Source: a virus (lineage: Duplodnaviria > Heunggongvirae > Uroviricota > Caudoviricetes). From it: DNA of 64,000 nt. The stretch lies in IMG/VR virus record IMGVR_UViG_2541047850_000005, positions 3,554 to 67,553 of that record. One strand, given 5' to 3'. Of the stretch, positions 3,026 through 61,727 are shown one piece after another; within the stretch, counting starts at the first letter, position 1, and every line of letters begins with the position of its first letter. The position numbers and the translations under genes were made by a program. Below the pieces are notes generated by a model. It did not search any database, was not told the DNA's origin, and was given only the letters and a program-made list of their open reading frames with translations.

Positions 3026-3139
3026 AGTGTCTTGGTTATTTTTCTATTTTATAGACATAGGTATGTACTTACAATACAAAAAAAACCCGTAAGGATGGCG
3101 GGGCTGTCGTACTGTCGACTAATTACCACTTGCACATTA

Positions 3140-3451: not shown

Positions 3452-3604
3452 CACAACTCCGTAAACAACTTGTTTTCTCAATGTCGTAAATAATACCAGT
3501 AAGAAAACGGCTACAAAGCATATTGATCAGGTGCATGAGCGATATGCAGGTTCTTCCCTGCGGCTATAGAGAAATTAAGCCAGCAATGCTGGCTTTGGTT
3601 GGGA

Positions 3605-4073: not shown

Positions 4074-4292
4074 TTAATCTTGGTCGTCCGGGAACTCGCT
4101 GTGTACCGCGCCAACCAGCTCCCGCTTTTCATCTTCACTCAGCAGGTGCCAGATATCCTTCCCTTTGGGCGATTCCCCTTCTGCCGGGACGAACGACCAC
4201 AACTTGCGGTACAACTCCGGCCCCACTGCATCCAGACACTCAGCCAGGGAATCCACGCCCCACACCTCAACCGTCACAGGCATCTTAATCAT
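4074..4292 (-). CDS. hypothetical acidic protein (72 aa)
   Basis: ORF with SD GAGGA. Hairpin GCCACCGTGCTGGTGGC lies downstream. Confidence 0.55.
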   Translation of the reverse strand: MIKMPVTVEVWGVDSLAECLDAVGPELYRKLWSFVPAEGESPKGKDIWHLLSEDEKRELVGAVHSEFPDDQD

Positions 4293-4319
4293 CTCTTCAT
4301 CCTCACTTCGTTTCTATAA

Positions 4320-6322: not shown

Positions 6323-8356
6323 TTACTTAACCTGGTGACCAGGTTTAGCACCAGCATCCGGGCTTAACAGGAAGATATCTTTCCCACCAGGACCAGCAGC
6401 CATCACCATGCCTTCTGAGATACCGAAACGCATTTTACGCGGAGCCAGGTTAGCCACCATAATGGTGTGACGACCAATCAGTGCCTGTGGGTCTGGATAA
6501 GCAGAACGAATGCCGGAGAAGACATTACGCTTTTCCCCACCGAGATCCAGTGTCAGACGCAGCAGTTTGTCAGAGCCTTCAACAAACTCCGCGTTTTCAA
6601 TCAGCGCCACACGCAGGTCAACTTTGGCGAAGTCGTCAAAGGTGATGGTTTCCTGAATCGGGTCGTCAGCCAGTGGGCCAGTTACCGGTGCGGCTGTGGC
6701 TTTCACTTCTTCTTTGGATGCTTCCACCAGTGCTTCCACCTGTTTCATATCGATGCGGTTATACAGCGCCTTGAACGGATTCACTTTGTGGCCCAGCAGC
6801 GGTTGCTGGATACCATCCCAGGTCAGTTCTGTATTGAGGAATGCTTCTGCGCGCTCGGTCAGTTTCGGCAGTACCGGTTTCAGGTAAGTCATCAGCACGC
6901 GGAACAGGTTAATGCCCATAGAGCAAATCGCCTGCAGATCGGCATCGCGACCTTCCTGCTTCGCCACCACCCACGGAGCCTGTTCATCGACATAGCGGTT
7001 AGCCAGGTCAGCCAGTGCCATGATTTCACGGATAGCTTTACCAAATTCGCGGCTTTCCCATGCTTCGCCAATCACTTCAGCGGCATCAGTAAAGGTTTTG
7101 TACAGTTGCGGGTCAGCCAGTTCGCTTGCCAGCACGCCGTCAAAACGCTTGTTGATAAAGCCTGCATTACGGGAGGCCAGGTTAACCACTTTGTTCACGA
7201 TATCGGCATTCACTCGCTGAACGAAATCTTCCAGGTTGAGATCGATATCATCAATGCGCGAAGAGAGTTTCGCAGTGTAGTAGTAACGCAGGCTGTCGGC
7301 GTCAAAATGATTCAGCCAGGTGCTGGCTTTAATGAACGTGCCGCGAGACTTGGACATCTTCGCACCGTTCACCGTCACATAGCCATGAACAAACAGGTTG
7401 GTCGGCTTGCGGAAGTTGCTGCCTTCCAGCATGGCAGGCCAGAACAGGCTGTGGAAGTAAACGATATCTTTACCGATGAAGTGGTACAGCTCGGCGGTGG
7501 AGTCTTTCTTCCAGTATTCATCGAAGCTGGAGGTGTCGCCGCGTTTGTCGCACAGATTCTTGAAGGAACCCATGTAGCCAATCGGCGCGTCCAGCCAGAC
7601 GTAGAAATATTTGCCCGGCGCGTTCGGAATTTCAAAACCGAAATAAGGGGCGTCGCGGGAGATATCCCACTGTTGCAGGCCAGATTCAAACCACTCCTGC
7701 ATTTTATTTGCCACCTGCTCCTGCAACGCACCGCTGCGGGTCCATGCCTGCAGCATTTCGCTGAAAGAAGGCAGATCAAAGAAGAAGTGTTCGGAATCAC
7801 GCATTACCGGCGTAGCACCAGAAACTACCGATTTCGGCTCGATCAGTTCAGTCGGGCTGTAAGTCGCGCCGCAGACTTCACAGTTATCGCCGTATTGATC
7901 TGGCGCTTTACATTTAGGGCAGGTGCCTTTTACAAAACGGTCCGGCAGGAACATGCCTTTTTCCGGGTCGTATAACTGAGAGATGGTGCGGTTTTTAATA
8001 AAACCGTTCTCTTTCAGGCGAGTATAAATAAGCTCGGACAACTGACGGTTCTCTTCGCTGTGCGTCGAGTGATAGTTGTCATAGCTGATGTTAAAGCCTG
8101 CAAAATCAGTCTGGTGTTCCTGACTCATTTCGCCAATCATCTGTTCCGGTGTGATACCAAGCTGCTGTGCTTTCAGCATGATCGGTGTGCCGTGGGCATC
8201 GTCGGCACAGATGAAATTAACCTCGTGGCCGCGCATTCGCTGGTAACGAACCCAGACATCAGCCTGGATGTGCTCCAGCATATGGCCGAGGTGGATTGAG
8301 CCGTTAGCGTACGGCAGCGCGCACGTCACCAGAATTTTCTTCGCGACTTGGGTCAT
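6323..8356 (-). CDS. metG: methionyl-tRNA synthetase
   Basis: 677 aa from [30 protein letters not shown] motif present, plus a C-terminal tRNA-binding domain. Near-identical to E. coli MetG as recalled. Confidence 0.97.
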
Positions 8357-21410: not shown

Positions 21411-22004
21411 TTACTGCTTGTTATAAACAAAACCAATATCTTTCTTGTGAGGCATATCTGCTGCGGAAAAAGCTGCGATCTTCGCGAGTCGATCACATAT
21501 TTCATTTTCACGATGCCCGGCGTGACCTTTAACCCACTTCCAGCGAACATTATGTCGACTTGCGGCCTCATCCAGACGCTTCCACAGATCAACATTCTTT
21601 ACCGGTTTTTTGTCAGAAGTCATCCATCCATTGCGTTTCCACCATTTCATCCACTGTGTCATGCCGTTTTTCAGATACTGGCTATCAGAGTGCAAAATAA
21701 CGTTGCATGGATATTTCAAACGCTCCAGCCCGATAAGTGCCCCCATCATCTCCATGCGGTTATTGGTGGTGCTATGAAAACCATCTGAGAACTCGCGTTC
21801 CTCACCACGATACTGAAGAACGATACCGTAACCGCCCGGGCCACCCGGATTTTTAAGGCAAGAGCCATCACTGAAGATTTTCACGGTTTTAAGCTGGGGA
21901 TTGAACTCTACGACAGGCGTTGTGGGATTGGTACGGGGAGAATTTTTGTTTTTGGCTTTTTTGCGAGTTTTTGCTTGCGATCGGGCTGGTGTCTTCGTCG
22001 TCAT
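21411..22004 (-). CDS. rnhA: ribonuclease HI with a basic N-terminal extension
   Basis: [25 protein letters not shown] and [17 protein letters not shown] 22004 with an AGGAG SD. Confidence 0.9.
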
Positions 22005-22588
22005 ATAAACTCCTGAATCAAGCGCCGCGCCGATTTTTTTTTCCTCGCGCGTGCGCACACGCGTGCGTGTTAATAATTATTAAAATAAACAAATTACTTC
22101 CCAGAACAGGTTTTTATAAACCTGAACTGAACGAACGAAGTGAGTGAAGTTCACCTCGAACGAAGTGAGAGGTTGTCTTTTCAGGTAATACTCTCCCAGG
22201 GAGGTGAGTATAAAATTCCTCACCAACCTGGTCGTTTCATAACCTGAAAAGTTATGGTCTAAGTCTACTGCCAGCTTAGACTTGGGAAGTTATGGATGAC
22301 AGCACCCCAGAACCGAGATCTTCCCACACTTTATGAAGGGGAGTACTGGATTCAACCTCTCGAAACACCCCAGACTCGACAATCATAAAGTGACCCTTGT
22401 CTCTGCTCACTTTGGTTCCCCCTTCCCCGACACCTAAACGGCACCGGTTCTACGCTGGTAGTGAGCTTTTTAAACCTGACGCCAGTGACGCTTACCCCCA
22501 CCCATCAGGTCGAGCCTCCAGTCTACGACTGGAAACAATCAGATCTTAGCACTTACAATTCACTTTATGAATAGTTTGTACTTATCTA
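22005..22588 (-). other. ORF-free, hairpin-dense region (candidate long leader, ncRNA or origin)
   Basis: No ORF of 60 aa or more lies within about 22148-22588 on either strand. At least 6 stems of 6-7 bp, repeated words CATAAAGTG and TCTGGGGTG, motif-2 site at its upstream end. Confidence 0.35.
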
Positions 22589-22819
22589 TCATTGTGATTG
22601 ATTATTTTCTCGACCATGTAGTTGAACATTCAAGGCAAACACCTCATTGATCAACTCACCTAAAAGCTGTTCAACAAGTTCGCGATGCTCCCCAAGATGC
22701 AAGCACTTAATTGCCCATTCGTACAAGTTGAAAGCCTGCTCTCGATCTTTCATCATTTCACGAGCCTTAGCCAGAAAATCGCTCTCTACGAGCGCAACGA
22801 CATTAGTCGGGTATGACAT
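22589..22819 (-). CDS. hypothetical protein (76 aa)
   Basis: ATG 22819 with AAGGA 9 nt upstream. Confidence 0.55.
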   Translation of the reverse strand: MSYPTNVVALVESDFLAKAREMMKDREQAFNLYEWAIKCLHLGEHRELVEQLLGELINEVFALNVQLHGRENNQSQ

Positions 22820-23003
22820 GTTGGTTTCCTTAAAGTGGTTCATAAAATCGATTTTAAAGCGTCTGGGAAGGGGGTCTAGTGGATTCTGTAGTGATGTTCA
22901 GGTCTGGGAGTCTCTGATACAAAACAGCCTGCTTCCGTATATTAATAATTAATATGTAGTTATTTATATACAGAAGCAGGTTAATTACACTCGCCAGAAC
23001 AAA

Positions 23004-27330: not shown

Positions 27331-28434
27331 TCACACCGCCACTGGAACCTTGATCCACGGTAGAGGGTCATAGCCAAGAATCAGAATATCGTCCCATTTG
27401 AAATCATCCAGCTCAGACCATTCATGAGGGAAAATAACGACCGGATCTGAATGCTCTGGAGCCTGTCGTTTCATTAGCTCACACACACCTTCCATGTGGT
27501 TGTTGTACAAATGCACGTCAAAGCCAAAATGCACAAATGCACCGGCCATGTGACCCGTAATCTTCGCGAGAAAATGAGTGAGAATGCCATAGCCAGCAAT
27601 ATTGAATGGCATACCAACAAAAGTGTCTACGCTACGCTGTACGAGGCAGGAGTTGAGGATGCGTTTGGGGATTCCAAGTTCATCCAGTTCAGTTTCAGTA
27701 ACACTGCCGTCCATCTCCAGATCGTATAGCATCTTGGTGTAGATAGACTCATAACCGAGGCGACTGTGTTGAAGACCAATGTCAGTTGCCATCGTTAAAC
27801 GGGTTTCAAAATCAAGCTCACGACTCCACAAAGAGAAGACAAAGTGGCAAGGTGGCAGTTTCATATCCTCAAGCTCGCCTACGTTCCATGCGTTAAGCAT
27901 GATGCGACGATCGGTAGGGTTCGTGCGCAGTGTGTCGACAATACGCTGTAGCTGATCGATTTCACGGGACAGCACTACGCGATCTTCACTGATACCCAGG
28001 TATCCCTCGACTTTGTACCCGCGTTCACGGAAAGTAGCGATCTTGCTCAGATATTCACTATGGCTCACGATGCGGGTATCTTCCCATCGACGCCACTGCT
28101 TACCGTAAACCGGCCCCAAATCGCCATTCTCATCGGCCCATGCATCCCAAATCTTAACGCCGTTATCCTTAAGAAATTGGATGTTGCCCGTGCCTTTCAG
28201 ATACCACTCAAGTTCGACAAGCAGTGGTTTAAGATTTACCGCCTTTCCAGAAATAAGCGGCACAGTCCCACCAGTAAGCATGTAGTAAGAGGGAACGTAG
28301 CAGGTGCTTAAAGTACCAGTGCCTGTGCGATCATCAGTCTGCACGCCGCTTTTAAGCACCGTCTCAATAACTTTTGCATACGATGCGTTTGTTACCTGAC
28401 CGTTCGTATGCTCACGATTCAAAAGGAGTGACAT
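27331..28434 (-). CDS. thyA: thymidylate synthase (ThyA family, with insertions)
   Basis: DRTGTGT, PPCH and VDTFVGMPFNIAGY (specificity Asn retained). Confidence 0.85.
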   Translation of the reverse strand: MSLLLNREHTNGQVTNASYAKVIETVLKSGVQTDDRTGTGTLSTCYVPSYYMLTGGTVPLISGKAVNLKPLLVELEWYLKGTGNIQFLKDNGVKIWDAWADENGDLGPVYGKQWRRWEDTRIVSHSEYLSKIATFRERGYKVEGYLGISEDRVVLSREIDQLQRIVDTLRTNPTDRRIMLNAWNVGELEDMKLPPCHFVFSLWSRELDFETRLTMATDIGLQHSRLGYESIYTKMLYDLEMDGSVTETELDELGIPKRILNSCLVQRSVDTFVGMPFNIAGYGILTHFLAKITGHMAGAFVHFGFDVHLYNNHMEGVCELMKRQAPEHSDPVVIFPHEWSELDDFKWDDILILGYDPLPWIKVPVAV

Positions 28435-28510
28435 AAAACCTCACGAAGATAAGTAATCAATTATTTATCACGTGAGTTTACATTCATTGATAACACAAGA
28501 CCAGATAGAT

Positions 28511-28540
28511 AAAAAATGGTGGCCATAGGCCACCAAAAAG
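28511..28540. terminator. bidirectional-looking terminator
   Basis: AAAAAA-TGGTGGCCATAGGCCACCA-AAAAAG. Confidence 0.65.
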
Positions 28541-28601
28541 AATAGTCGCTCCAGAGTTTTATACGCAAATCAAATATACATTAGTAGATAATCACCTACA
28601 A

Positions 28602-29471
28602 TTATTTTTTGATCATTCCGTACATTGCTGAGGCTTTAGCTTGCTCAACAAAGGAGGATAAATCGACATCACTATAGGTTGGAGACTTCAGAATCTTTCC
28701 ATCGGAAATTCGAAAACCGATCATCTTATCGGTGCCATCAGCATGGCGGAATCCCAGATCTGAAGAGTCGTATTTGCAGTTGGCCACAGCCTGGCGACGT
28801 TCCTCGACATCAGCAGGCCATAATTTTGTCATGTTAGACCGATGAATTTCGCCAACCAGCTCGACTACATTGATACCGAGGAAATCAGCCAGTCGATAGG
28901 TCATCATGCACGCCACATAGATTTTGTTCATGACACGGCGCAGTTCCTGAATCAGCTCAGAATCCTTAACAGTCTTGTTCTCAAGTTTATCTGCCAGCTC
29001 TTCGAGCATACATGACGCCTCACGAGCTTCCTGAAATGGCATTGCCATATCATCGAAAACAGTGTTACCGGGCACAAAAATTGTCTGCATAAAGCGATCA
29101 ATGCTCTGTTCCTGCGTGTAATAGGTCATGCCGGTAGAAATACCACCTTTGATGGCGACCATCGTACCAACACCAACGTATAAAAAGTCGGCCATTGCAT
29201 CCAGCAGTTGCTCAATATCCCCATTCATTGCAGCTGGAATACCTTCCACTACAGCTTCTTCATGAATCAGGCTTGCACGGAGACGAAGCAGCTCTGGTGT
29301 CGGCATAACGCGTCTCGGATGCTGGAAGAGTTCATGAAACTGATCGACCATCTTGTAAATACTTTCAGTAGCTACACCATGACCTTCATGCAACTCATAT
29401 GGTTCTGGCTTAAATCCAATGAGACGATCGGTGGCAAGTTTCAGGTGGTCAGTCAGTTTGGTAAAGTTCAT
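28602..29471 (-). CDS. MazG-like all-alpha NTP pyrophosphohydrolase candidate
   Basis: LIHEEAVVEG.. and LLDAMADFLYVGVG, resembling the EExxE/DxxD motifs. ATG 29471. Confidence 0.5.
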   Translation of the reverse strand: MNFTKLTDHLKLATDRLIGFKPEPYELHEGHGVATESIYKMVDQFHELFQHPRRVMPTPELLRLRASLIHEEAVVEGIPAAMNGDIEQLLDAMADFLYVGVGTMVAIKGGISTGMTYYTQEQSIDRFMQTIFVPGNTVFDDMAMPFQEAREASCMLEELADKLENKTVKDSELIQELRRVMNKIYVACMMTYRLADFLGINVVELVGEIHRSNMTKLWPADVEERRQAVANCKYDSSDLGFRHADGTDKMIGFRISDGKILKSPTYSDVDLSSFVEQAKASAMYGMIKK

Positions 29472-29548
29472 GCTAGTTTTGTTCCTTCTTAATTCTTGTG
29501 ATCCATTGTGGCCCAGCGTTGCCAGGCCACATAATGCTTTGTATCGGT

Positions 29549-30691
29549 TTACAGGTCTGCAAACTGGCTTAGAGAAGCCTTGTCCACGGTAGAATCGATC
29601 TGACCTACCAGATATGTGCTTTGCTCTGCCTCTTGTGGTGCAATTTGCAGTGTGTCGGTTAACAACCACTTGTTCATCCAGACCAGCGGATCGGTGGTAA
29701 CCTCTGGAAATAAAGCCTTCAGGCCAAGACGATTCATAGCCAGATTGGTGCGGTATTTTACATAGGTCTTCAAAATATCCGCGTTTAAACCAATCATCGA
29801 ACCGTCTTTGAAGAGATACTCGGCCCAGTTCATTTCTTGTTCGGCGACTGATTTCATGGTGTCGTAAATGACGTTTTCTTCATCAGCAGCAATCTCTTTC
29901 CACAATAAACCTTCGCGACCGGTACGCATGAAGCGGATCATGCGTTCAGTTCCTTCGCAATGCAGAGCTTCATCACGGGCAATAAAGCGCATAATTTTGG
30001 TGTTACCCTCAAGCAACTTCCGTTCGCCAAAGGCAAACGTACATGCAAAACTTACATAGAAACGGATCGCCTCAAGCGCATTAATGGACACCAACGTGCG
30101 GAAAAGCTGACGGTGCAAAGGGTATGGCTCCCAGCCATATTCATTTACGTACAGACGTTCAAACTCCTTCTCACCTAACGACTGGCGCTCGCAGGTCATC
30201 CCATAAAGCCTGTCATATTCAGCAGAGATACTGATCGCTCGGTTGATGATTTCTTCATCCGTAACAATACCGTCAAAAACAATGCTCGGATCGTCCACCA
30301 TGCCACGAATAATGTGGGTGTAGCTGCGGCTATGGATAGTCTCAGAGAAAGACCATGTTTCAACCCACGTTTCCAGTTCAGGAATAGAGATAAGCGGCAG
30401 CAGCGTTGCATTTGGGCTACGTCCCTGAACTGAATCGAGTAACGTTTGATAACGGAGATTGCTCAGAAAAATGTGACGTTCGTGGTCCCGCAGCTTCGTG
30501 TTGAAGTCGATACGATCGCTCGAAATATCAACTTCTTCCGGCCGCCAGAAGAAAGACAATTGACGTTCAATCAACTTTTCAAAATCACGGTATTTTTGCT
30601 GATCGTAACGTGCCACGTTGACAGATTGTCCGAGGAACATAGGCTCTTTGGTTGCATCATTAGCACCCAAACGGAACGTTGAATATGACAT
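29549..30691 (-). CDS. nrdB: ribonucleotide reductase class Ia beta subunit
   Basis: 380 aa from MSYSTFRLG. Ferritin-like RNR2 motifs (..EALHCEG..). Leader AGGAAAAACACATG. Confidence 0.92.
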
Positions 30692-56318: not shown

Positions 56319-56361
56319 TTTACAACCCTAACCTTTGATGTAATATCGGTAAGCACTTACC
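56319..56361 (+). promoter_or_regulatory. candidate promoter of the XRE gene with a motif-2 half-site palindrome at +1
   Basis: TTTACA-16-TAATAT, then GGTAAGCACTTACC at 56348-56361. Confidence 0.5.
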
Positions 56362-56390
56362 AGAGAGTTTAACGCGCAAAGGTCGCAATA

Positions 56391-56777
56391 ATGTCTGACA
56401 AAAACATTGAATTTATAGAAAGTCGCTATGCTGCTTTTATCGCAGGGCTGATTGAATCCTCACCTATGAGTCAGGCCCAAATAGCCAGACTTATTGGTTA
56501 TAAAAATGCCAACAACCTTTCTTTAATTAAAAGTGGTAAAATTCCTTTGCCTATCGATAAGGTTCGTCCGCTGGCGTTGGCGCTGGGTATTGAGCCAAGT
56601 CGTCTTATGATGATGGTGCTGGAAGAACGCCAACCTGAACTCGCAGCATTTTTATACAAAGAAGGCACCGCTCCTCTTAACGAGGACGAAAAACAGGTTC
56701 TTGCTGCATATAACGAGCGATTCGGTAAAGAGAAAGGCGCATCACAAAAGGTTGTTGAGGCCATAAAGTCTCTATGA
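56391..56777 (+). CDS. XRE-family helix-turn-helix regulator (repressor candidate)
   Basis: SQAQIARLIGYKNANNLSLIKSGK HTH. The only obvious HTH protein in the block. Confidence 0.8.
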   Translation: MSDKNIEFIESRYAAFIAGLIESSPMSQAQIARLIGYKNANNLSLIKSGKIPLPIDKVRPLALALGIEPSRLMMMVLEERQPELAAFLYKEGTAPLNEDEKQVLAAYNERFGKEKGASQKVVEAIKSL

Positions 56778-57875
56778 AAAATTTAGACGAATAAGCTCTG
56801 TTGATAGACGATCTCCCTTGAATTTGTGGTCAATTTCGTCTAAATCCGGTTGCTCTACGATTGATGCGATGTACGTTGAGAAACTTTCTAAGGCGTCTCG
56901 CATCTCGTCCATATAATCGTGCCGGTCGTAGACCCGATCTATCCCCTCAAGACTGTGGTTCATGATTTTGCGTGATACCTCCTGGCTTATGCCTAATGCT
57001 GGGAAGTAACTACGCGCAGTACGACGCAAATCTCGGGGTGTAAATGGCGCAAGCTCCATCAGTTCTGGTCGTTCCAGAATACGACGTAATGCCTGGGCTA
57101 TTGCCACTTTAGACATAGGAAGGTCTTTCCCGATTTTTTTATTCGAAGGCACGAGCCACTGGCTGTCTTTACCGTATTCGAACAACTCTTCAATGCATGT
57201 GCGCATTAATGTGCTTAAAGGCAGCGAATGCTCACGTGCTGACTTGTTTCTCTTGCCTTGATTCCAAACTCCACGCTTAAGATTGAACTCACTTTTTTTA
57301 GCCCTCAGTACTTCGTCAGGTCGTCTTGCTGATACAAGACACAGCCTGGCCGCCCATTTTGTACCAGCGCACACATTGAAGTAGTCCCATATATTCCAGA
57401 ACACCCATACCTCTGCGTCGGTCAGCTTCCGCTCGCGAGGTGTGGGCTTTGCGCCACCGGCAACTTTGTTTAGTGACATATCGTTTAACGGTGACACGTC
57501 TATCATCCCCTGGAAGGCGCACCAGCTAAGGAACTGCTTCATCAGAGAGAAAACGCGGCGGCCCATAACAATTTTGCCATCCAGTATTAGTGGGTTGACC
57601 AGTTGGTTCACCATGAACCTATTAATGTCACTTACTTTTACATCGGCAATGTGCGGCAAAACATGTATCAAAATACAATGAACAGCGATCTCTGGCCGAC
57701 GTCTGGTTATCAGCAGAGATAAGCGAGTGAATAACATGAATGCGTCCGAGAATTTCATATCATTGCTAACCTGCGAGATCATAACGGCCTGCATTTGAGA
57801 TGCTCTTTCGAGATACTCAATCGCCTCTTTTGAGGTGTTCTCAGCAGCGCGTGCTCTGTCAAAGCTATTTTTCAT
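56772..57875 (-). CDS. int: tyrosine recombinase/integrase
   Basis: ..RDLRRTARS.. and ..MNHSLEGIDRVYDRHDY (R, H-x-x-R-like, Y). Confidence 0.88.
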   Translation of the reverse strand: MKNSFDRARAAENTSKEAIEYLERASQMQAVMISQVSNDMKFSDAFMLFTRLSLLITRRRPEIAVHCILIHVLPHIADVKVSDINRFMVNQLVNPLILDGKIVMGRRVFSLMKQFLSWCAFQGMIDVSPLNDMSLNKVAGGAKPTPRERKLTDAEVWVFWNIWDYFNVCAGTKWAARLCLVSARRPDEVLRAKKSEFNLKRGVWNQGKRNKSAREHSLPLSTLMRTCIEELFEYGKDSQWLVPSNKKIGKDLPMSKVAIAQALRRILERPELMELAPFTPRDLRRTARSYFPALGISQEVSRKIMNHSLEGIDRVYDRHDYMDEMRDALESFSTYIASIVEQPDLDEIDHKFKGDRLSTELIRLNFS

Positions 57876-58407: not shown

Positions 58408-59190
58408 TTATTTTGAGATATATAAAGTTTTGTGTGGCTGTTTATTTTTCAGGTAAAATTGTTTAGGTGTCATATTGAAGTACCTCTTAAACACTGAGAT
58501 AAAGTATGCTTCACTTGTATATCCTAAACACTTGGCGACAAAACCAACTTTCCCAGTGTTGTGTTCTAATAGTTGTAACGCGTTTTTCATTTTAGTATCT
58601 AAAGTTAACTGTGTAAAAGTATAATTTTCCTCTTTTAGTCTTCTCCTCAATGAGGATTCTGAAGTATAAAGAGCGGAAGCCATTTCGCCTATACGCCATT
58701 GTTGAGTTAAGTTTTTTTCTAAGATGGATGATACTTTTTCTGAAATCAAAATTACTGGCATTGACTGCTTAAAGAAGTTTGTAAGTTCATAGGTGTCTAT
58801 GCGGCTGAATAAAAATAACAGTATGCTAACGCGTCTAAAACCTGATTTTTCATTTTTAAGTTGTCTAAAGGCTAACTCTTCTTCCGTGTTCAGACTTGGT
58901 CCGATAATTAATGGTGGTTTGTTGTTGGTCGGGTGTATATTAACGCAGGAGAGAAATTTCACAATAATTCCAATATCCTCATCTTGAATAGTATAAATTT
59001 CGTCAGCAGAAACACGTCCGCTCAAACCAACAATTTTACTCTTTTTGCTAATAATGAAAAATGTATTTTTTAAAAGTTCTATCTCTTGATGCTCATTCAA
59101 ATAAATTTTTATTGATTGATGTTTGACATAAACTAAGGTGTATTTATTAAATATCATGTTTTTAAATGGCAACATGGTATTTTCCATCAC
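58408..59190 (-). CDS. Rns/CfaD/AggR-like AraC-family regulator
   Basis: 260 aa, AT-rich. C-terminal double HTH (..SESSLRRRLKEEN.., ..GYTSEAYFISVFKRYFNMTPKQF). N-terminus resembles Rns. Confidence 0.85.
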   Translation of the reverse strand: MMENTMLPFKNMIFNKYTLVYVKHQSIKIYLNEHQEIELLKNTFFIISKKSKIVGLSGRVSADEIYTIQDEDIGIIVKFLSCVNIHPTNNKPPLIIGPSLNTEEELAFRQLKNEKSGFRRVSILLFLFSRIDTYELTNFFKQSMPVILISEKVSSILEKNLTQQWRIGEMASALYTSESSLRRRLKEENYTFTQLTLDTKMKNALQLLEHNTGKVGFVAKCLGYTSEAYFISVFKRYFNMTPKQFYLKNKQPHKTLYISK

Positions 59191-59246
59191 GCAAATTTTT
59201 ATATTACCACACCATGATTATGATGTGGTACATACTATATGAATAT

Positions 59247-61727
59247 CTATTCGCAAACTAGGGAGAGTCGACTTATCTTGCTTTGGTTTGCTTTTAATTC
59301 AAATCGTGCGGAGCATTGGCTTTCTTTATTGTCTCCCCATTGGACATGCATTTCACCTCTGTCAGGCATACCACTCATCCATACCTGCCCATCGTTCGAA
59401 ACAATGCTTGTTACACTGATATCTCCGGCTTCTCCTTTTAACGAGGCAATAGCGCCAAAAGGAACGAAATTACCATTTTTTCTAATCAAAGTAATAAGTG
59501 CCTTATGTCCAGATACTACATTAAATTTGGCGTGAACTAACGCCCCACGGGAAGGTACTACCGTTAAATCAGATTTAATTATTTCAGTTTCTTCATTAAC
59601 CTTGTTTACGTCTAGAGATATTCCATTTTTTCTATAGGGTGAAAGGTAAGGAACCACAGCATATCCATTGAAATCTGTGCTAATACCAATACCTCTTTTT
59701 ACTTTGATGTCTTCTACGCCATTAGTGTCGATCAATGCATTAGCTCCGTCAAGAGATAACGGCTGAGACAATACAATCCCTTTTTTGTGTACAACTACTC
59801 CACCGCTAATGCCAAATTGTAATTGTTTTGAGTTATGTTGATGTGACACTGTTGATTGTATCTCTCCCTTGGAGGATTTATATCTCAGCGTTGCATTACC
59901 TGAACTGGAGTCACGACTACCGCTATGATAACCTTCCATGAAACTATAATATAATTGCTGGTCTATAAAATAACCACTCACACCTGCTTGTGTATTTGTG
60001 CTATTTCCTGAATTGTATACATTTGTTGTCAATGATGCATTACTATAGTTCGAAAAAGAACTAAAAGGTACTGAAACTGAAAGATAAACAGATTTATCTA
60101 TATCTTCATATTGTGGTTGTTTATTATAGTTTAATGACAAGGATGTAAATACCTTTTTTACAGGAAACGAATACGATAGCCGAAATTGGCGACTATCTTT
60201 AGCATTTCTATAAGTAGTCCAGTCTGAGGATAAGGTCAATTGGTTAGTATTGCCAATACTTTGTTGCAACTGAGTGGTAATTCTATTTATTTTATTAAAT
60301 TTGGAATTATTACCAATCTTCATCTGTTGATAATCATTAAAAGAATAGAAGTTCTGTGAATTATAAAGTTGCTCTGTCAAATTCAAATAAGTACCTGTAG
60401 ACTCAAATCCTTTCGCAAACATTAGTCGAGTTACAGAACCATTTTCACTTTTTCCATTATCTTTAGACACCGTATCAGAATCGGAGTAGCTCAGATCTAA
60501 TGAAAAAGCACCAATTGAAGATATGTACTTGCCAACTCCAAATGAAGCCGAACTATAGTTTTCGGCAACAATTATTCCACCAAAGATTGTAGTGTCCCAT
60601 CCTATACCCCATGCCGTTGAATATTGTAAGAATAAGGGCTTGTCTTTGAATGAGCTATTGATATCTCTATACTTACCAATTGCTGCGTGATAACGCATGC
60701 GACCTTTACGTTGGAGAATCGGTAATGTTGATGATGACTGTGTAAAGTGTCTAATCTCGCCATTACTTTCTCGTATTTCGATATCCATATCCCCTCCATA
60801 CAAAGGGAAGACATCTTGCAGCTCGAATGGACCTGCAGGAACGTCACCTTGCCAGATTATCATATTATTTTGCTTTACGATTATTTGGGATGGAGTGAAT
60901 GCGATTCCTCTAATTGTAGGGCTGTAAGTGCTCATCCAAGGGACGAGCATGCCATCATCGGACCCTATTGATATCCCTTCAAACGGAAAGCTTTCAAACA
61001 CTCCATCATCAGTTGATGATTGTCCAAATGTCAATTGTCCACCTTGTCCGAAGCTATAGTCATGACGCAAGTAGGTATTCAAATTTGTCCAGCCATATTT
61101 ACTTGAATTCCAGTACCCATTATGTCTCACTCTCCACCCCCCGATATTCAGTCCACTGTTAATTGCCAGTGATTGATTGTTCTTGGATGTTGAGTTTAGC
61201 CTTTGTCGTACATCAGAATAACGGTAATTTACAAGCAGTGAGGTTTCACCATCATCCCATGCTTGAGGTGGTATTTCTGACCACACAGGACGATAGATCC
61301 AACTTTGTGGAATGTTTACACTTAGAATCTGCTTGCTCTTATTGAATTTTACTTCAAACCCTTTGATCTGTTTTGAAAGTTCATTAGAAAGAATACTGCC
61401 ATTAGTTATATTTAAATTCGTTACATCAACCCCCCACTTTTTTAGACTCGTCTCTGTAAGTAGAGGAACAACCTTTCCTTTTCCTGATGATACGAATCGG
61501 ATCGTTTCCGTACCGAATGATTCATTGTTGACTTTAACATCAACAAGATATTCTCCAGGAAGAACTCCGTCCGCATGAGAGAAATAACTTAAATCAGGAG
61601 CATTAACCTTTTTATCATTACCAATATTAATAAATGCAGGATCAAATGTGTAGTTGGTTGCTAACTCTTCTGCATTGCTATAATGTATGACAAAAAAGAC
61701 AAATAAGGCTATTTGTTTTGTTTTCAT
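59247..61727 (-). CDS. fimbrial outer-membrane usher
   Basis: 826 aa, signal peptide, FimD/PapC-like length and beta-rich sequence, positioned between chaperone and regulator. Confidence 0.92.
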   Translation of the reverse strand: MKTKQIALFVFFVIHYSNAEELATNYTFDPAFINIGNDKKVNAPDLSYFSHADGVLPGEYLVDVKVNNESFGTETIRFVSSGKGKVVPLLTETSLKKWGVDVTNLNITNGSILSNELSKQIKGFEVKFNKSKQILSVNIPQSWIYRPVWSEIPPQAWDDGETSLLVNYRYSDVRQRLNSTSKNNQSLAINSGLNIGGWRVRHNGYWNSSKYGWTNLNTYLRHDYSFGQGGQLTFGQSSTDDGVFESFPFEGISIGSDDGMLVPWMSTYSPTIRGIAFTPSQIIVKQNNMIIWQGDVPAGPFELQDVFPLYGGDMDIEIRESNGEIRHFTQSSSTLPILQRKGRMRYHAAIGKYRDINSSFKDKPLFLQYSTAWGIGWDTTIFGGIIVAENYSSASFGVGKYISSIGAFSLDLSYSDSDTVSKDNGKSENGSVTRLMFAKGFESTGTYLNLTEQLYNSQNFYSFNDYQQMKIGNNSKFNKINRITTQLQQSIGNTNQLTLSSDWTTYRNAKDSRQFRLSYSFPVKKVFTSLSLNYNKQPQYEDIDKSVYLSVSVPFSSFSNYSNASLTTNVYNSGNSTNTQAGVSGYFIDQQLYYSFMEGYHSGSRDSSSGNATLRYKSSKGEIQSTVSHQHNSKQLQFGISGGVVVHKKGIVLSQPLSLDGANALIDTNGVEDIKVKRGIGISTDFNGYAVVPYLSPYRKNGISLDVNKVNEETEIIKSDLTVVPSRGALVHAKFNVVSGHKALITLIRKNGNFVPFGAIASLKGEAGDISVTSIVSNDGQVWMSGMPDRGEMHVQWGDNKESQCSARFELKANQSKISRLSLVCE

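Follow-up and report, generated by a model that had tools for sequence, protein, structure and literature searches.

A gap at positions 22005-22588 interrupts a 64,000-nucleotide (nt) stretch of viral DNA (IMG/VR record IMGVR_UViG_2541047850_000005, positions 3,554 to 67,553; the whole stretch is hereafter called the window). It lies between rnhA, which encodes ribonuclease (RNase) HI and has its start ATG at 22004, and an open reading frame (ORF) of 76/84 amino acids (aa) that stops at 22589. We found that this gap is non-coding and under stronger constraint than the neighboring genes, and that its minus strand forms about 17 helices, most of which are backed by compensatory substitutions. 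The gap is probably the gene for a highly structured, stand-alone non-coding RNA (ncRNA) of about 450 nt that is made from the minus strand, is expressed in lysogeny, and may act in trans. The best-supported reading is that this RNA represents a new family, specific to SSU5-like phage-plasmids and matching no described RNA family. An initial annotation, made from the sequence alone, had considered a structured 5′ leader of rnhA, a stand-alone ncRNA, and an R-loop or primer-RNA origin of replication. The second of these agrees best with what we found, namely, a predicted and conserved promoter of its own, absence of coding sequence, a fold supported by covariation, expression 12-40 times that of both flanking genes, and persistence of the element where rnhA has been replaced. 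The predicted gene is as follows:

22085-22536, minus strand: structured non-coding RNA, predicted, about 450 nt (5′ end from the promoter, 3′ end approximate)

An 801-bp query from this region of the window matched Escherichia phage PhiR41_1 (PV340561.1) at 100% identity, phage Cyrano (pLF82) and other E. coli phage-plasmids at 97-98%, and Salmonella phage SSU5 at 86%; the window therefore belongs to a phage-plasmid of the SSU5/pHCM2 type. In megablast searches, Klebsiella phage genomes aligned to the query across its conserved core only. Cyrano is the phage-plasmid of strain LF82, and MG1655 is the listed host of PhiR41_1.

Absence of a conserved coding sequence

The initial annotation had reported that no ORF of at least 60 aa lies within 22148-22588 on either strand, and this holds; the longest ORFs there have 44-50 aa. 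Among the small ORFs of both strands, none keeps its length across lineages. The one that has been annotated, a 44-aa ORF named CYRAN_81 in phage Cyrano (78657-78791), is intact in 35 of 48 sequences and is altered or shortened by indels of 1-2 nt in 13. An internal AUG present within this ORF in the window is missing from the divergent copy on contig L143, and the predicted peptide is not hydrophobic. We also looked for the mRNA of a type I toxin (hok-like) and found neither a conserved small hydrophobic ORF nor any ORF kept across lineages. A decayed pseudogene, which the initial annotation had named as the alternative, was excluded by two observations: the region is more conserved than the adjacent genes, and its indels do not come in multiples of three. 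Because constraint exceeds that of the neighbors and no ORF is preserved, the region is a non-coding element rather than a decayed gene. In the record of phage Cyrano, the RNA region is thus misannotated as a 44-aa protein.

RNA structure and covariation

The minus strand has a minimum free energy of −156.6 kcal/mol (z = −3.8) and the plus strand one of −129.4 kcal/mol (z = −3.3). For 49 unique minus-strand cores, RNAalifold gave a consensus of 135 pairs in 18 helices, with 99.6% of cells paired. Two-sided changes occurred in 11 pairs of this first alignment, compared with 2-4 when the 3′ partner was slid by 1-3 columns. Compensated cells numbered 115, compared with 4-19 in the slid controls and 29 ± 6 in shuffles, and none of 500 shuffles reached 115. 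A second alignment (17 sequences, including divergent homologs) had 97.6% of cells paired and double changes in 32 of 115 pairs, compared with 4-7 in slid controls; shuffles gave 11.7 ± 2.5, and none of 500 reached the observed number. The check for covariation in related elements that the initial annotation had proposed thus revealed compensatory changes far above controls.

The consensus energy also depends on the strand, with −150.4 for minus versus −116.3 for plus in the first alignment and −111.2 versus −84.3 in the second. On the plus strand, many invariant G-U pairs would turn into A-C mismatches, and for this reason the functional molecule is the minus-strand RNA. The structural elements identified, from the 5′ to the 3′ end of the RNA, are:

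22514-22536, minus strand: H1, 5′-terminal hairpin (double changes in three pairs)
22473-22511, minus strand: H2, GACCUGAUG.../...CGUCAGGUU, with a G-rich apical part (compensatory double changes in 3-5 pairs)
22405-22466, minus strand: three-way junction H3-H5 (1-3 double changes in H3; one-sided and double changes in H4)
22327-22392, minus strand: extended hairpin H8-H10 (double changes in H8, H9, and H10)
22257-22326, minus strand: H11/H12 (UGGGAAG...CUUCCCA) and hairpin H13 (GUCUAAG/CUUAGAC)
22177-22251, minus strand: long hairpin H14/H15 (two double changes in H15)
22155-22174, minus strand: universal motif AACCUCUCACUUCGUUCGAG (AACCUCUCACUYCGUUCGAG), invariant in 82 unique sequences
22096-22130, minus strand: H18, 3′ hairpin CAGGUUU/AAACCUG with the universal UUCUGGG (22100-22106), followed by a U-rich tract

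In the 5′ part, H1 is wholly different in sequence between lineages and forms a hairpin in each of them. The invariant G-U pairs of H2 are compatible with the minus strand only, and the H3-H5 junction includes a conserved purine-rich strand, GGGGAAGGGGGAACCAAAG. The arms of H8-H10, CACUUUAUGA and UCAUAAAGUG, account for a repeated word, CATAAAGTG and its complement, that the initial annotation had listed. Two of its occurrences are the arms of a single helix (22383-22392 and 22327-22336), and a third, which is not conserved, lies in the promoter. H11/H12 encloses a conserved loop, AUCUCGGUUCUG. In the second alignment, H11 has three double changes and H13 five, both with 100% pairing, and H12 is also supported; it was the addition of divergent homologs that gave H11, H12, H13, and H15 their covariation support.

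Alternative pairings are found in the 3′ part. A local hairpin CAUAAC/GUUAUG (22238-22256), which has one double change, is incompatible with H14. By hand analysis, H14 is still possible in L143 after re-registering. Around the universal motif, CCUC, GAGG, and CUUC compete three ways. The motif itself differs by one base in L143/L144 and by one base (the third A) in L146, and one possible drawing of it is a CCUC/GAGG hairpin whose 11-nt loop, UCACUUCGUUC, contains a YUNR-type UUCG. Part of it, CUCACUUCGUUCG, recurs as a second copy at 22132-22144. This corresponds to the other repeated word that was confirmed, CTCACTTCGTTCG, at 22157-22169 and 22132-22144. UA to GC double changes were found in H18 in eight sequences. 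The approximate 3′ end of the RNA lies just past a conserved UUCUGGGAAGUAA and ahead of a U-rich tract; in L143, this end consists of ACCCA-UUC-UGGGU and a U/A-rich tail, flagged as terminator-like by a scan.

All five stems listed in the initial annotation are present in the sequence, with the positions given there for CATAAC/GTTATG being one base off:

22107-22113 and 22118-22124: CAGGTTT/AAACCTG
22203-22208 and 22219-22224: GGTGAG/CTCACC
22238-22243 and 22251-22256: CATAAC/GTTATG
within 22257-22281: TCTAAG/CTTAGA
within 22514-22536: CCAGTC/GACTGG

Conservation and distribution

Through the RNase H protein, 79 IMG/VR loci were gathered, and the region was aligned from 59 unique sequences. 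A conservation profile was calculated in 30-nt bins for 12 representatives with <97% mutual identity. The core (22095-22515) is 90-99% conserved per bin (about 95%) and contains indels of 1-2 nt; the two flanking genes are 54-85% conserved (mostly 70-80%), and the promoter-proximal part (22515-22570) 55-59%. The RNA is thus the most conserved stretch of the roughly 1-kb interval compared (21900-22900 of the window). In this first set of sequences, the 3′ half was near-invariant, and the upstream 76-aa ORF was used to find more divergent copies. These were found on contigs of an Enterobacter hormaechei-type lineage (L143-L145) and on L146, with nhmmer scores of 165 and 370 bits versus 585 for the window copy. 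Between lineages, divergence of the 5′ domain is gradual.

The region is carried by 685-687 PLSDB plasmids, nearly all of which are non-mobilizable replicons of about 105-120 kb, in Klebsiella, Escherichia, Enterobacter, Salmonella, Citrobacter, and Cronobacter. Among complete E. coli genomes, 232 of 5426 (about 4%) contain it, and in the RefSeq E. coli records listed, no feature is annotated beneath the match. A scan of species-representative genomes found the element in Kluyvera and Buttiauxella only, plus three chance matches in GC-rich genes. RNase H loci at 38-49% identity do not have the RNA element. The literature searches found no description of such an RNA. These results indicate a genuine and widespread RNA element that has escaped annotation and resembles no curated RNA family, namely, a structured ncRNA borne by prophages or plasmids.

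IMG/VR and metagenome contigs often stop inside or beside the RNA gene (L022, L028, L045, L104, L105, L113, and others). Most likely, assemblers fail where diverged, co-occurring phage-plasmids share a near-identical segment, and these breaks probably do not mark a physical genome end.

Expression in lysogens

The initial annotation had suggested RNA sequencing (RNA-seq) as a check, and published data for LF82 and Cyrano show that the gap is transcribed in lysogens. RNA-seq of the lysogen LF82 carrying Cyrano was re-analyzed in PMC9928086. Public LF82 RNA-seq data have the accession GEO GSE154648. In LB medium, CYRAN_81, which lies inside the gap, has 113 and 121 normalized counts (overall about 117), the upstream ORF (CYRAN_80) has 10 and 9 (overall 9.5), and rnhA has 6 and 11 (overall 8.4; PMC9928086, S1 Table). 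In that study, CYRAN_81 is classed as a "moron" with 12 times the background signal (PMC9928086). Over five conditions, its log2 expression is 6.8-10.3, compared with 6.4-10.4 for the mRNA of the putative repressor, which it tracks up and down in most conditions, and both neighbors stay at 2.6-5.8 (PMC9928086). In macrophages, CYRAN_81 reaches a log2 value of 10.3 versus about 5 for the neighbors, similar to the repressor mRNA (PMC9928086). In this lysogen, whose element is 97% identical to that of the window, expression of the gap is thus 12-40 times that of both flanking genes, and abundance falls 14-42 fold from the RNA element to rnhA. These counts show that the gap gives rise to an abundant transcript of its own in the dormant state, with hardly any signal across rnhA, and the RNA is among the few loci expressed in that state.

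In the same data, another locus stands out. CYRAN_43 (Cyrano OV696614.1, 40268-40822), annotated as a hypothetical protein, has log2 values of 11.5-14.9, or 723 times the prophage background, and is by far the highest of the element. Either a further RNA or a lysogeny gene with very strong expression may lie behind this signal. Placing it in the window by linear mapping was wrong, as the window has different cargo there.

Predicted promoter and putative operator

Upstream of the RNA, we found a putative promoter and an operator-like palindrome:

22543-22571, minus strand: predicted sigma-70-type promoter (weak −35 TTCATA at 22566-22571, 17-nt spacer, TG at 22550-22551, TAAGAT at 22543-22548)
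22573-22586, unstranded: operator-like palindrome GATAAGTACAAACT (GGTAAGTACTTACC in relatives), centered at about −43.5 from the predicted start
Copies of the 14-mer palindrome in the window: 2270, 3060, 16426, 21398, 23612, 33161, 37860, 47868, 56348, and 60520

The −10 element TAnnAT is kept in all 12 lineages (TAAAAT, TACAAT, or TAGAAT in relatives), as is, in most of them, the TG two bases upstream (TTG in the L061/L057 type). In the divergent L143, the promoter reads TTTACC / 17 nt / TGcTAACAT. From this geometry, the start of transcription is predicted near 22536-22539. The initial annotation had placed a "motif-2 promoter" at 22570-22589; that site is not itself a promoter but a degenerate copy of the 14-bp palindrome, with the promoter just downstream. 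The palindrome is a perfect GGTAAGTACTTACC in Klebsiella-type relatives.

Allowing up to 3 mismatches, the palindrome ataGGTAAGTACTTACCtat has 10 matches in the window versus 1.6 expected. Several are intergenic and lie just 5′ of minus-strand transcription units, including one right after the rnhA stop and one before dam. A TATAAA box follows 6 nt downstream of the copies at 3060 and 21398, and at others a weaker TA-rich, −10-like box comes within 0-12 nt. The copies at 2270, 47868, and 60520, which are in ORFs or weak, may be due to chance. The best copy (1 mismatch; 56348-56361) is located 30 nt upstream of a gene for a 128-aa protein with weak helix-turn-helix (HTH) matches. This protein is the homolog of the "putative repressor" of Cyrano, and its gene adjoins the integrase gene. 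Judged from the sequence, these dispersed palindromes are probably the operator set of the phage-plasmid repressor. At the RNA promoter, the distance from operator to −10 element is 24 nt in 12 lineages even though the spacer sequence varies, and this geometry would fit activation or fine-tuning better than occlusion. These findings offer an initial look at how such elements would be regulated, with a dispersed palindromic operator positioned at the putative repressor gene and at early transcription units.

With regard to the repressor locus itself, the integrase gene (56772-57875) converges on the 3′ end of the putative repressor gene (56391-56777; 56348-56777 with the operator). At the putative repressor, the start from a promoter TTTACA / 16 nt / TAATAT would fall inside the operator, which points to autoregulation.

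Neighboring genes and the cargo slot

The genes and intervals that flank the RNA are:

22592-22819, minus strand: 76-aa ORF (phrog_5343; the 76/84-aa ORF spans 22589-22843), constant upstream neighbor of the RNA
21411-22004, minus strand: rnhA (RNase HI; Pfam RNase_H, E = 1e-44)
22005-22084, minus strand: spacer to rnhA, with a variable AT-rich stretch, an alternating purine-pyrimidine tract (22046-22069), a T9/A9 run (22034-22042), a GC block (22022-22033), and the rnhA ribosome-binding site (RBS)

The 76-aa ORF adjoins the RNA in every locus and belongs to a family confined to this group of phage-plasmids; its product is predicted to have three helices and has no informative structural match. 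On the other side, rnhA is replaced in L087, L143, L144, and L145. In Kluyvera sichuanensis (L087, 4800-6900), two opposite-strand genes occupy the place where rnhA would be and the RNA is intact. In the Enterobacter-type lineage (L143, 3829-4916), the RNA is followed by genes for a 200-aa protein with a weak, below-cutoff match to DUF7557 and for a Tad2-like (anti-Thoeris) protein. Given this variation in the downstream gene, the RNA marks the edge of a variable cargo block, of which rnhA is lineage-specific cargo. In Buttiauxella gaviniae (L083, 4830-6188), the locus retains no more than 330 nt from the 3′ end of the RNA (96% identity), fused in frame behind a foreign 387-aa ORF; given its different genomic context, this partial copy seems to be left over from a recombination event.

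Within the spacer, every lineage has the Z-DNA-prone alternating purine-pyrimidine tract (24 bp in the window, CGCGCGTGCGCACACGCGTGCGTG), the length of which varies like that of a (CA/CG)n microsatellite. We considered the GC-rich tract as a conserved terminator hairpin and rejected it, as it has no convincing covariation and behaves like an alternating purine-pyrimidine tract of changing length; what the spacer conserves is its composition.

Three other features of the window were recorded. An inverted repeat (CCTGCTTC / GAAGCAGG) flanks a pure AT stretch of about 36 bp (tattaataattaatat...) at 22927-22982, between dam and the 76-aa ORF, and is also kept in the divergent Enterobacter-type lineage (L143, 2840-2900); it could be a terminator or a site for DNA unwinding or binding. 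A low-GC (0.35) block of accessory cargo at 58408-61727 is unlike Cyrano at the corresponding place. From reading the translations, we take it to encode an AraC-like regulator (260 aa) and an 826-aa fimbrial usher-like protein. Finally, a gene for methionyl-tRNA synthetase, unusual for a phage-plasmid, is annotated in the PhiR41_1 record (28059-30092; about 6323-8356 of the window).

Search for known RNA families and targets

The initial annotation had recognized no RNA family in the gap, and the searches agree. Rfam 15 (including C4, RNAI, 6S, GOLLD, ROOL, HEARO, OLE, riboswitches, group I/II introns, and small ribozymes) did not match any part of the window at gathering score. With permissive thresholds, 21900-22700 and the divergent L143 copy gave only chance-level matches (E ≥ 0.066) far below gathering score. 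ARAGORN found no tRNA or tmRNA genes in the window.

Antisense targets were sought by blastn-short in the window and the remaining 44 kb of PhiR41_1 (108-kb genome), which yielded chance-level matches only. Paired with 821 translation-initiation regions, the universal motif gave duplex energies no better than shuffled versions did, and by hand, complementarity to the rnhA start amounts to 6-7 bp only. One candidate target at 4292-4312 was rejected. It consists of an RBS AACGAAGUGAGG, 8 nt, and the AUG of a 72-aa ORF, and 11 nt of it (4302-4312) are perfectly complementary to both copies of CUCACUUCGUU. The RBS site is kept in SSU5 and lost in Klebsiella pJN2-26, and the 72-aa ORF is absent from Cyrano; the complementarity may represent a lineage-specific target or chance. 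Features expected of two other classes of RNA were also sought in this locus. A type III toxin-antitoxin system would have tandem direct repeats of about 35-45 nt ahead of a toxin endoribonuclease gene; we found only two 13-nt words 25 nt apart and a variable downstream gene, and for a riboswitch or leader, there was no constant association with one downstream gene family.

Proposed function and alternative explanations

Taken together, these results suggest the following course of events for the RNA. Transcription would start near 22536-22539 from the conserved sigma-70 promoter with an extended −10 element. This promoter abuts the palindromic operator (about −43.5) of the element's putative HTH repressor, which would place the RNA in the lysogenic (plasmid-state) program and perhaps make it repressor-activated. 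Transcription would stop, or the transcript be processed, near 22085-22020, such that little transcription reaches rnhA. The most speculative step is the last one, in which the RNA may act in trans through invariant exposed motifs (the UCACUUCGUUC loop, the AUCUCGGUUCUG internal loop, and the purine-rich junction); what these motifs bind would be a conserved component of the host or the phage and not a long antisense target within the phage genome. Motifs that are constant in the divergent copies, namely, the universal motif, AUCUCGGUUCUG, GGGGAAGGGGGAACCAAAG, and the UUCUGGG near the 3′ end, are the most likely functional carriers. Since no phage target was found and the 3′ half is near-invariant from Escherichia to Klebsiella, we favor as its partner a conserved protein (of host or phage) or an RNA of the host.

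Several points weigh against this interpretation. The window copy of the promoter scores only 8/12 against the consensus, and it escaped the promoter scan because the threshold of the tool is 9. A canonical intrinsic terminator was not found at the 3′ end of the RNA. Strand, start, and stop rest on the structure and the predicted promoter, as the strandedness of the RNA-seq data is not stated. No RNA partner or target was found, and the trans-acting mode is reached by elimination. Recombinational homogenization at a module boundary could explain part of the near-invariance of the 3′ half. Finally, no rnhA promoter was found, and in the lytic cycle the region may be the 5′ part of the rnhA transcript as well.

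This last point bears on the main rival, a cis-acting leader or attenuator of the following operon that would end most transcripts ahead of the first gene in lysogens and be read through in the lytic cycle by way of a factor or ligand (riboswitch, attenuator, or processive antitermination). The element has the same orientation as the next gene and is directly upstream of it; neither a separate promoter for rnhA nor an operator copy within 3 mismatches was found in the 22005-22084 spacer; and the 14-42 fold drop in abundance and the mutually exclusive pairings (CAUAAC/GUUAUG versus H14, and CCUC/GAGG/CUUC) also speak for it. However, the downstream gene differs (rnhA, the DUF7557 and Tad2-like pair, or the opposite-strand pair of Kluyvera) while the RNA stays intact, a length of 450 nt with many invariant loops is far above the size of known leaders, and no Rfam riboswitch or leader matches. 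The rnhA leader proposed in the initial annotation is thus poorly supported, given that rnhA is not a conserved downstream gene and is reached by little transcription, and we regard a cis-regulatory role as unlikely. The remaining alternatives (an origin, a recombination linker, and a small-protein gene) are each less likely still.

For a primer RNA or R-loop origin, the transcript would hybridize to downstream DNA and be cut by RNase H, priming lytic replication as ColE1 RNA II does. In its favor is the setting, with the element among replication and nucleotide-metabolism genes and beside RNase HI, a folded RNA of about 450-500 nt with G-rich tracts, and an AT-rich stretch and the alternating purine-pyrimidine tract just downstream. 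Expression points the other way: the RNA is made in the plasmid (lysogenic) state at repressor-like levels while the lytic genes are silent. The link to RNase H is lineage-specific, several lineages with the RNA having no rnhA at the locus. No antisense RNA I gene was found, the sole plus-strand promoter-like site (22530-22559) points away from the element, and there was no Rfam match to RNAI. GC skew is monotonic through the region, with no inflection at 22 kb. The origin suggested in the initial annotation thus found no support, and we consider it very improbable.

A similarly low probability attaches to a DNA-level explanation, in which the identity of the sequence stems from recombination between phage-plasmids at a core/cargo junction and involves no RNA function. 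Variable cargo starts right after the RNA element, many metagenome and IMG/VR contigs break inside it, and the partial copy in Buttiauxella is fused to a foreign gene. Compensatory double changes, the strand asymmetry of G-U pairs, and the strand-specific energy gap would be unexpected of a linker. Strong transcription and a 5′ domain that diverges gradually by lineage, as under vertical descent, also speak against it. Least credible of all is a decayed pseudogene, small-protein gene, or type I toxin mRNA, for which the annotation of CYRAN_81 and its integrity in 35 of 48 sequences are outweighed by the 1-2 nt indels, the missing AUG in L143, the non-hydrophobic peptide, and conservation above that of real genes nearby.

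Clinical E. coli, Klebsiella, Enterobacter, and Salmonella commonly harbor phage-plasmids of the SSU5/pHCM2/pKpn type, which carry resistance and anti-defense cargo. To our knowledge, large structured RNAs without known function are rare in well-studied enterobacteria. Because the hosts MG1655 and LF82 are genetically tractable, a role of the RNA in lysogeny maintenance, copy control, immunity, or host manipulation is directly testable.

Comparison with known systems

The RNA resembles c4 of P1/P7, CI of P4, and CA of N15 (Rfam C4 family) in that it is an RNA gene of a (plasmid-)prophage, expressed in lysogeny, that heads a block of lytic or antirepressor genes beside the operator of the main repressor; SSU5 itself has an ant gene three genes downstream. 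The c4, CI, and CA RNAs are about 70-80 nt long, are released from a longer precursor, and pair with complementary sites just downstream. In contrast, the RNA described here is a conserved structured unit of about 450 nt, which could in principle be processed into smaller RNAs, with no Rfam C4 match and no complementary target found downstream or elsewhere in the genome. ColE1-type primer RNA II is likewise plasmid-borne, about 500 nt long, highly folded, and associated with RNase H. It differs in having an RNA I counterpart (here, neither RNA I nor an Rfam RNAI match was found), in that rnhA is not a conserved neighbor of our element, and in that the latter has no evidence of origin activity and is expressed without runaway replication. 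The lambda pR′-tR′ 6S RNA and riboswitch "off" transcripts are also abundant short transcripts that end before genes silent in lysogens, but the RNA of the gap is far more structured and more conserved than these, and its downstream gene is interchangeable.

GOLLD, ROOL, HEARO, OLE, and raiA share with it a length of several hundred nt, a multi-helix architecture with many conserved loops, residence in prophages or mobile elements, and conservation above that of neighboring genes. It differs from them in having no Rfam 15 match, in being confined to phage-plasmids of Enterobacteriaceae, and in being expressed in lysogeny. More tentatively, it is possible that this RNA represents a new functional class of large RNA, of a complexity like that of OLE, GOLLD, and ROOL, in the lysogenic program of enterobacterial phage-plasmids. 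If so, it would be switched on by the prophage repressor, and it would scaffold a ribonucleoprotein, act as a ribozyme, or provide RNA-based immunity or anti-defense directed at a conserved host component.

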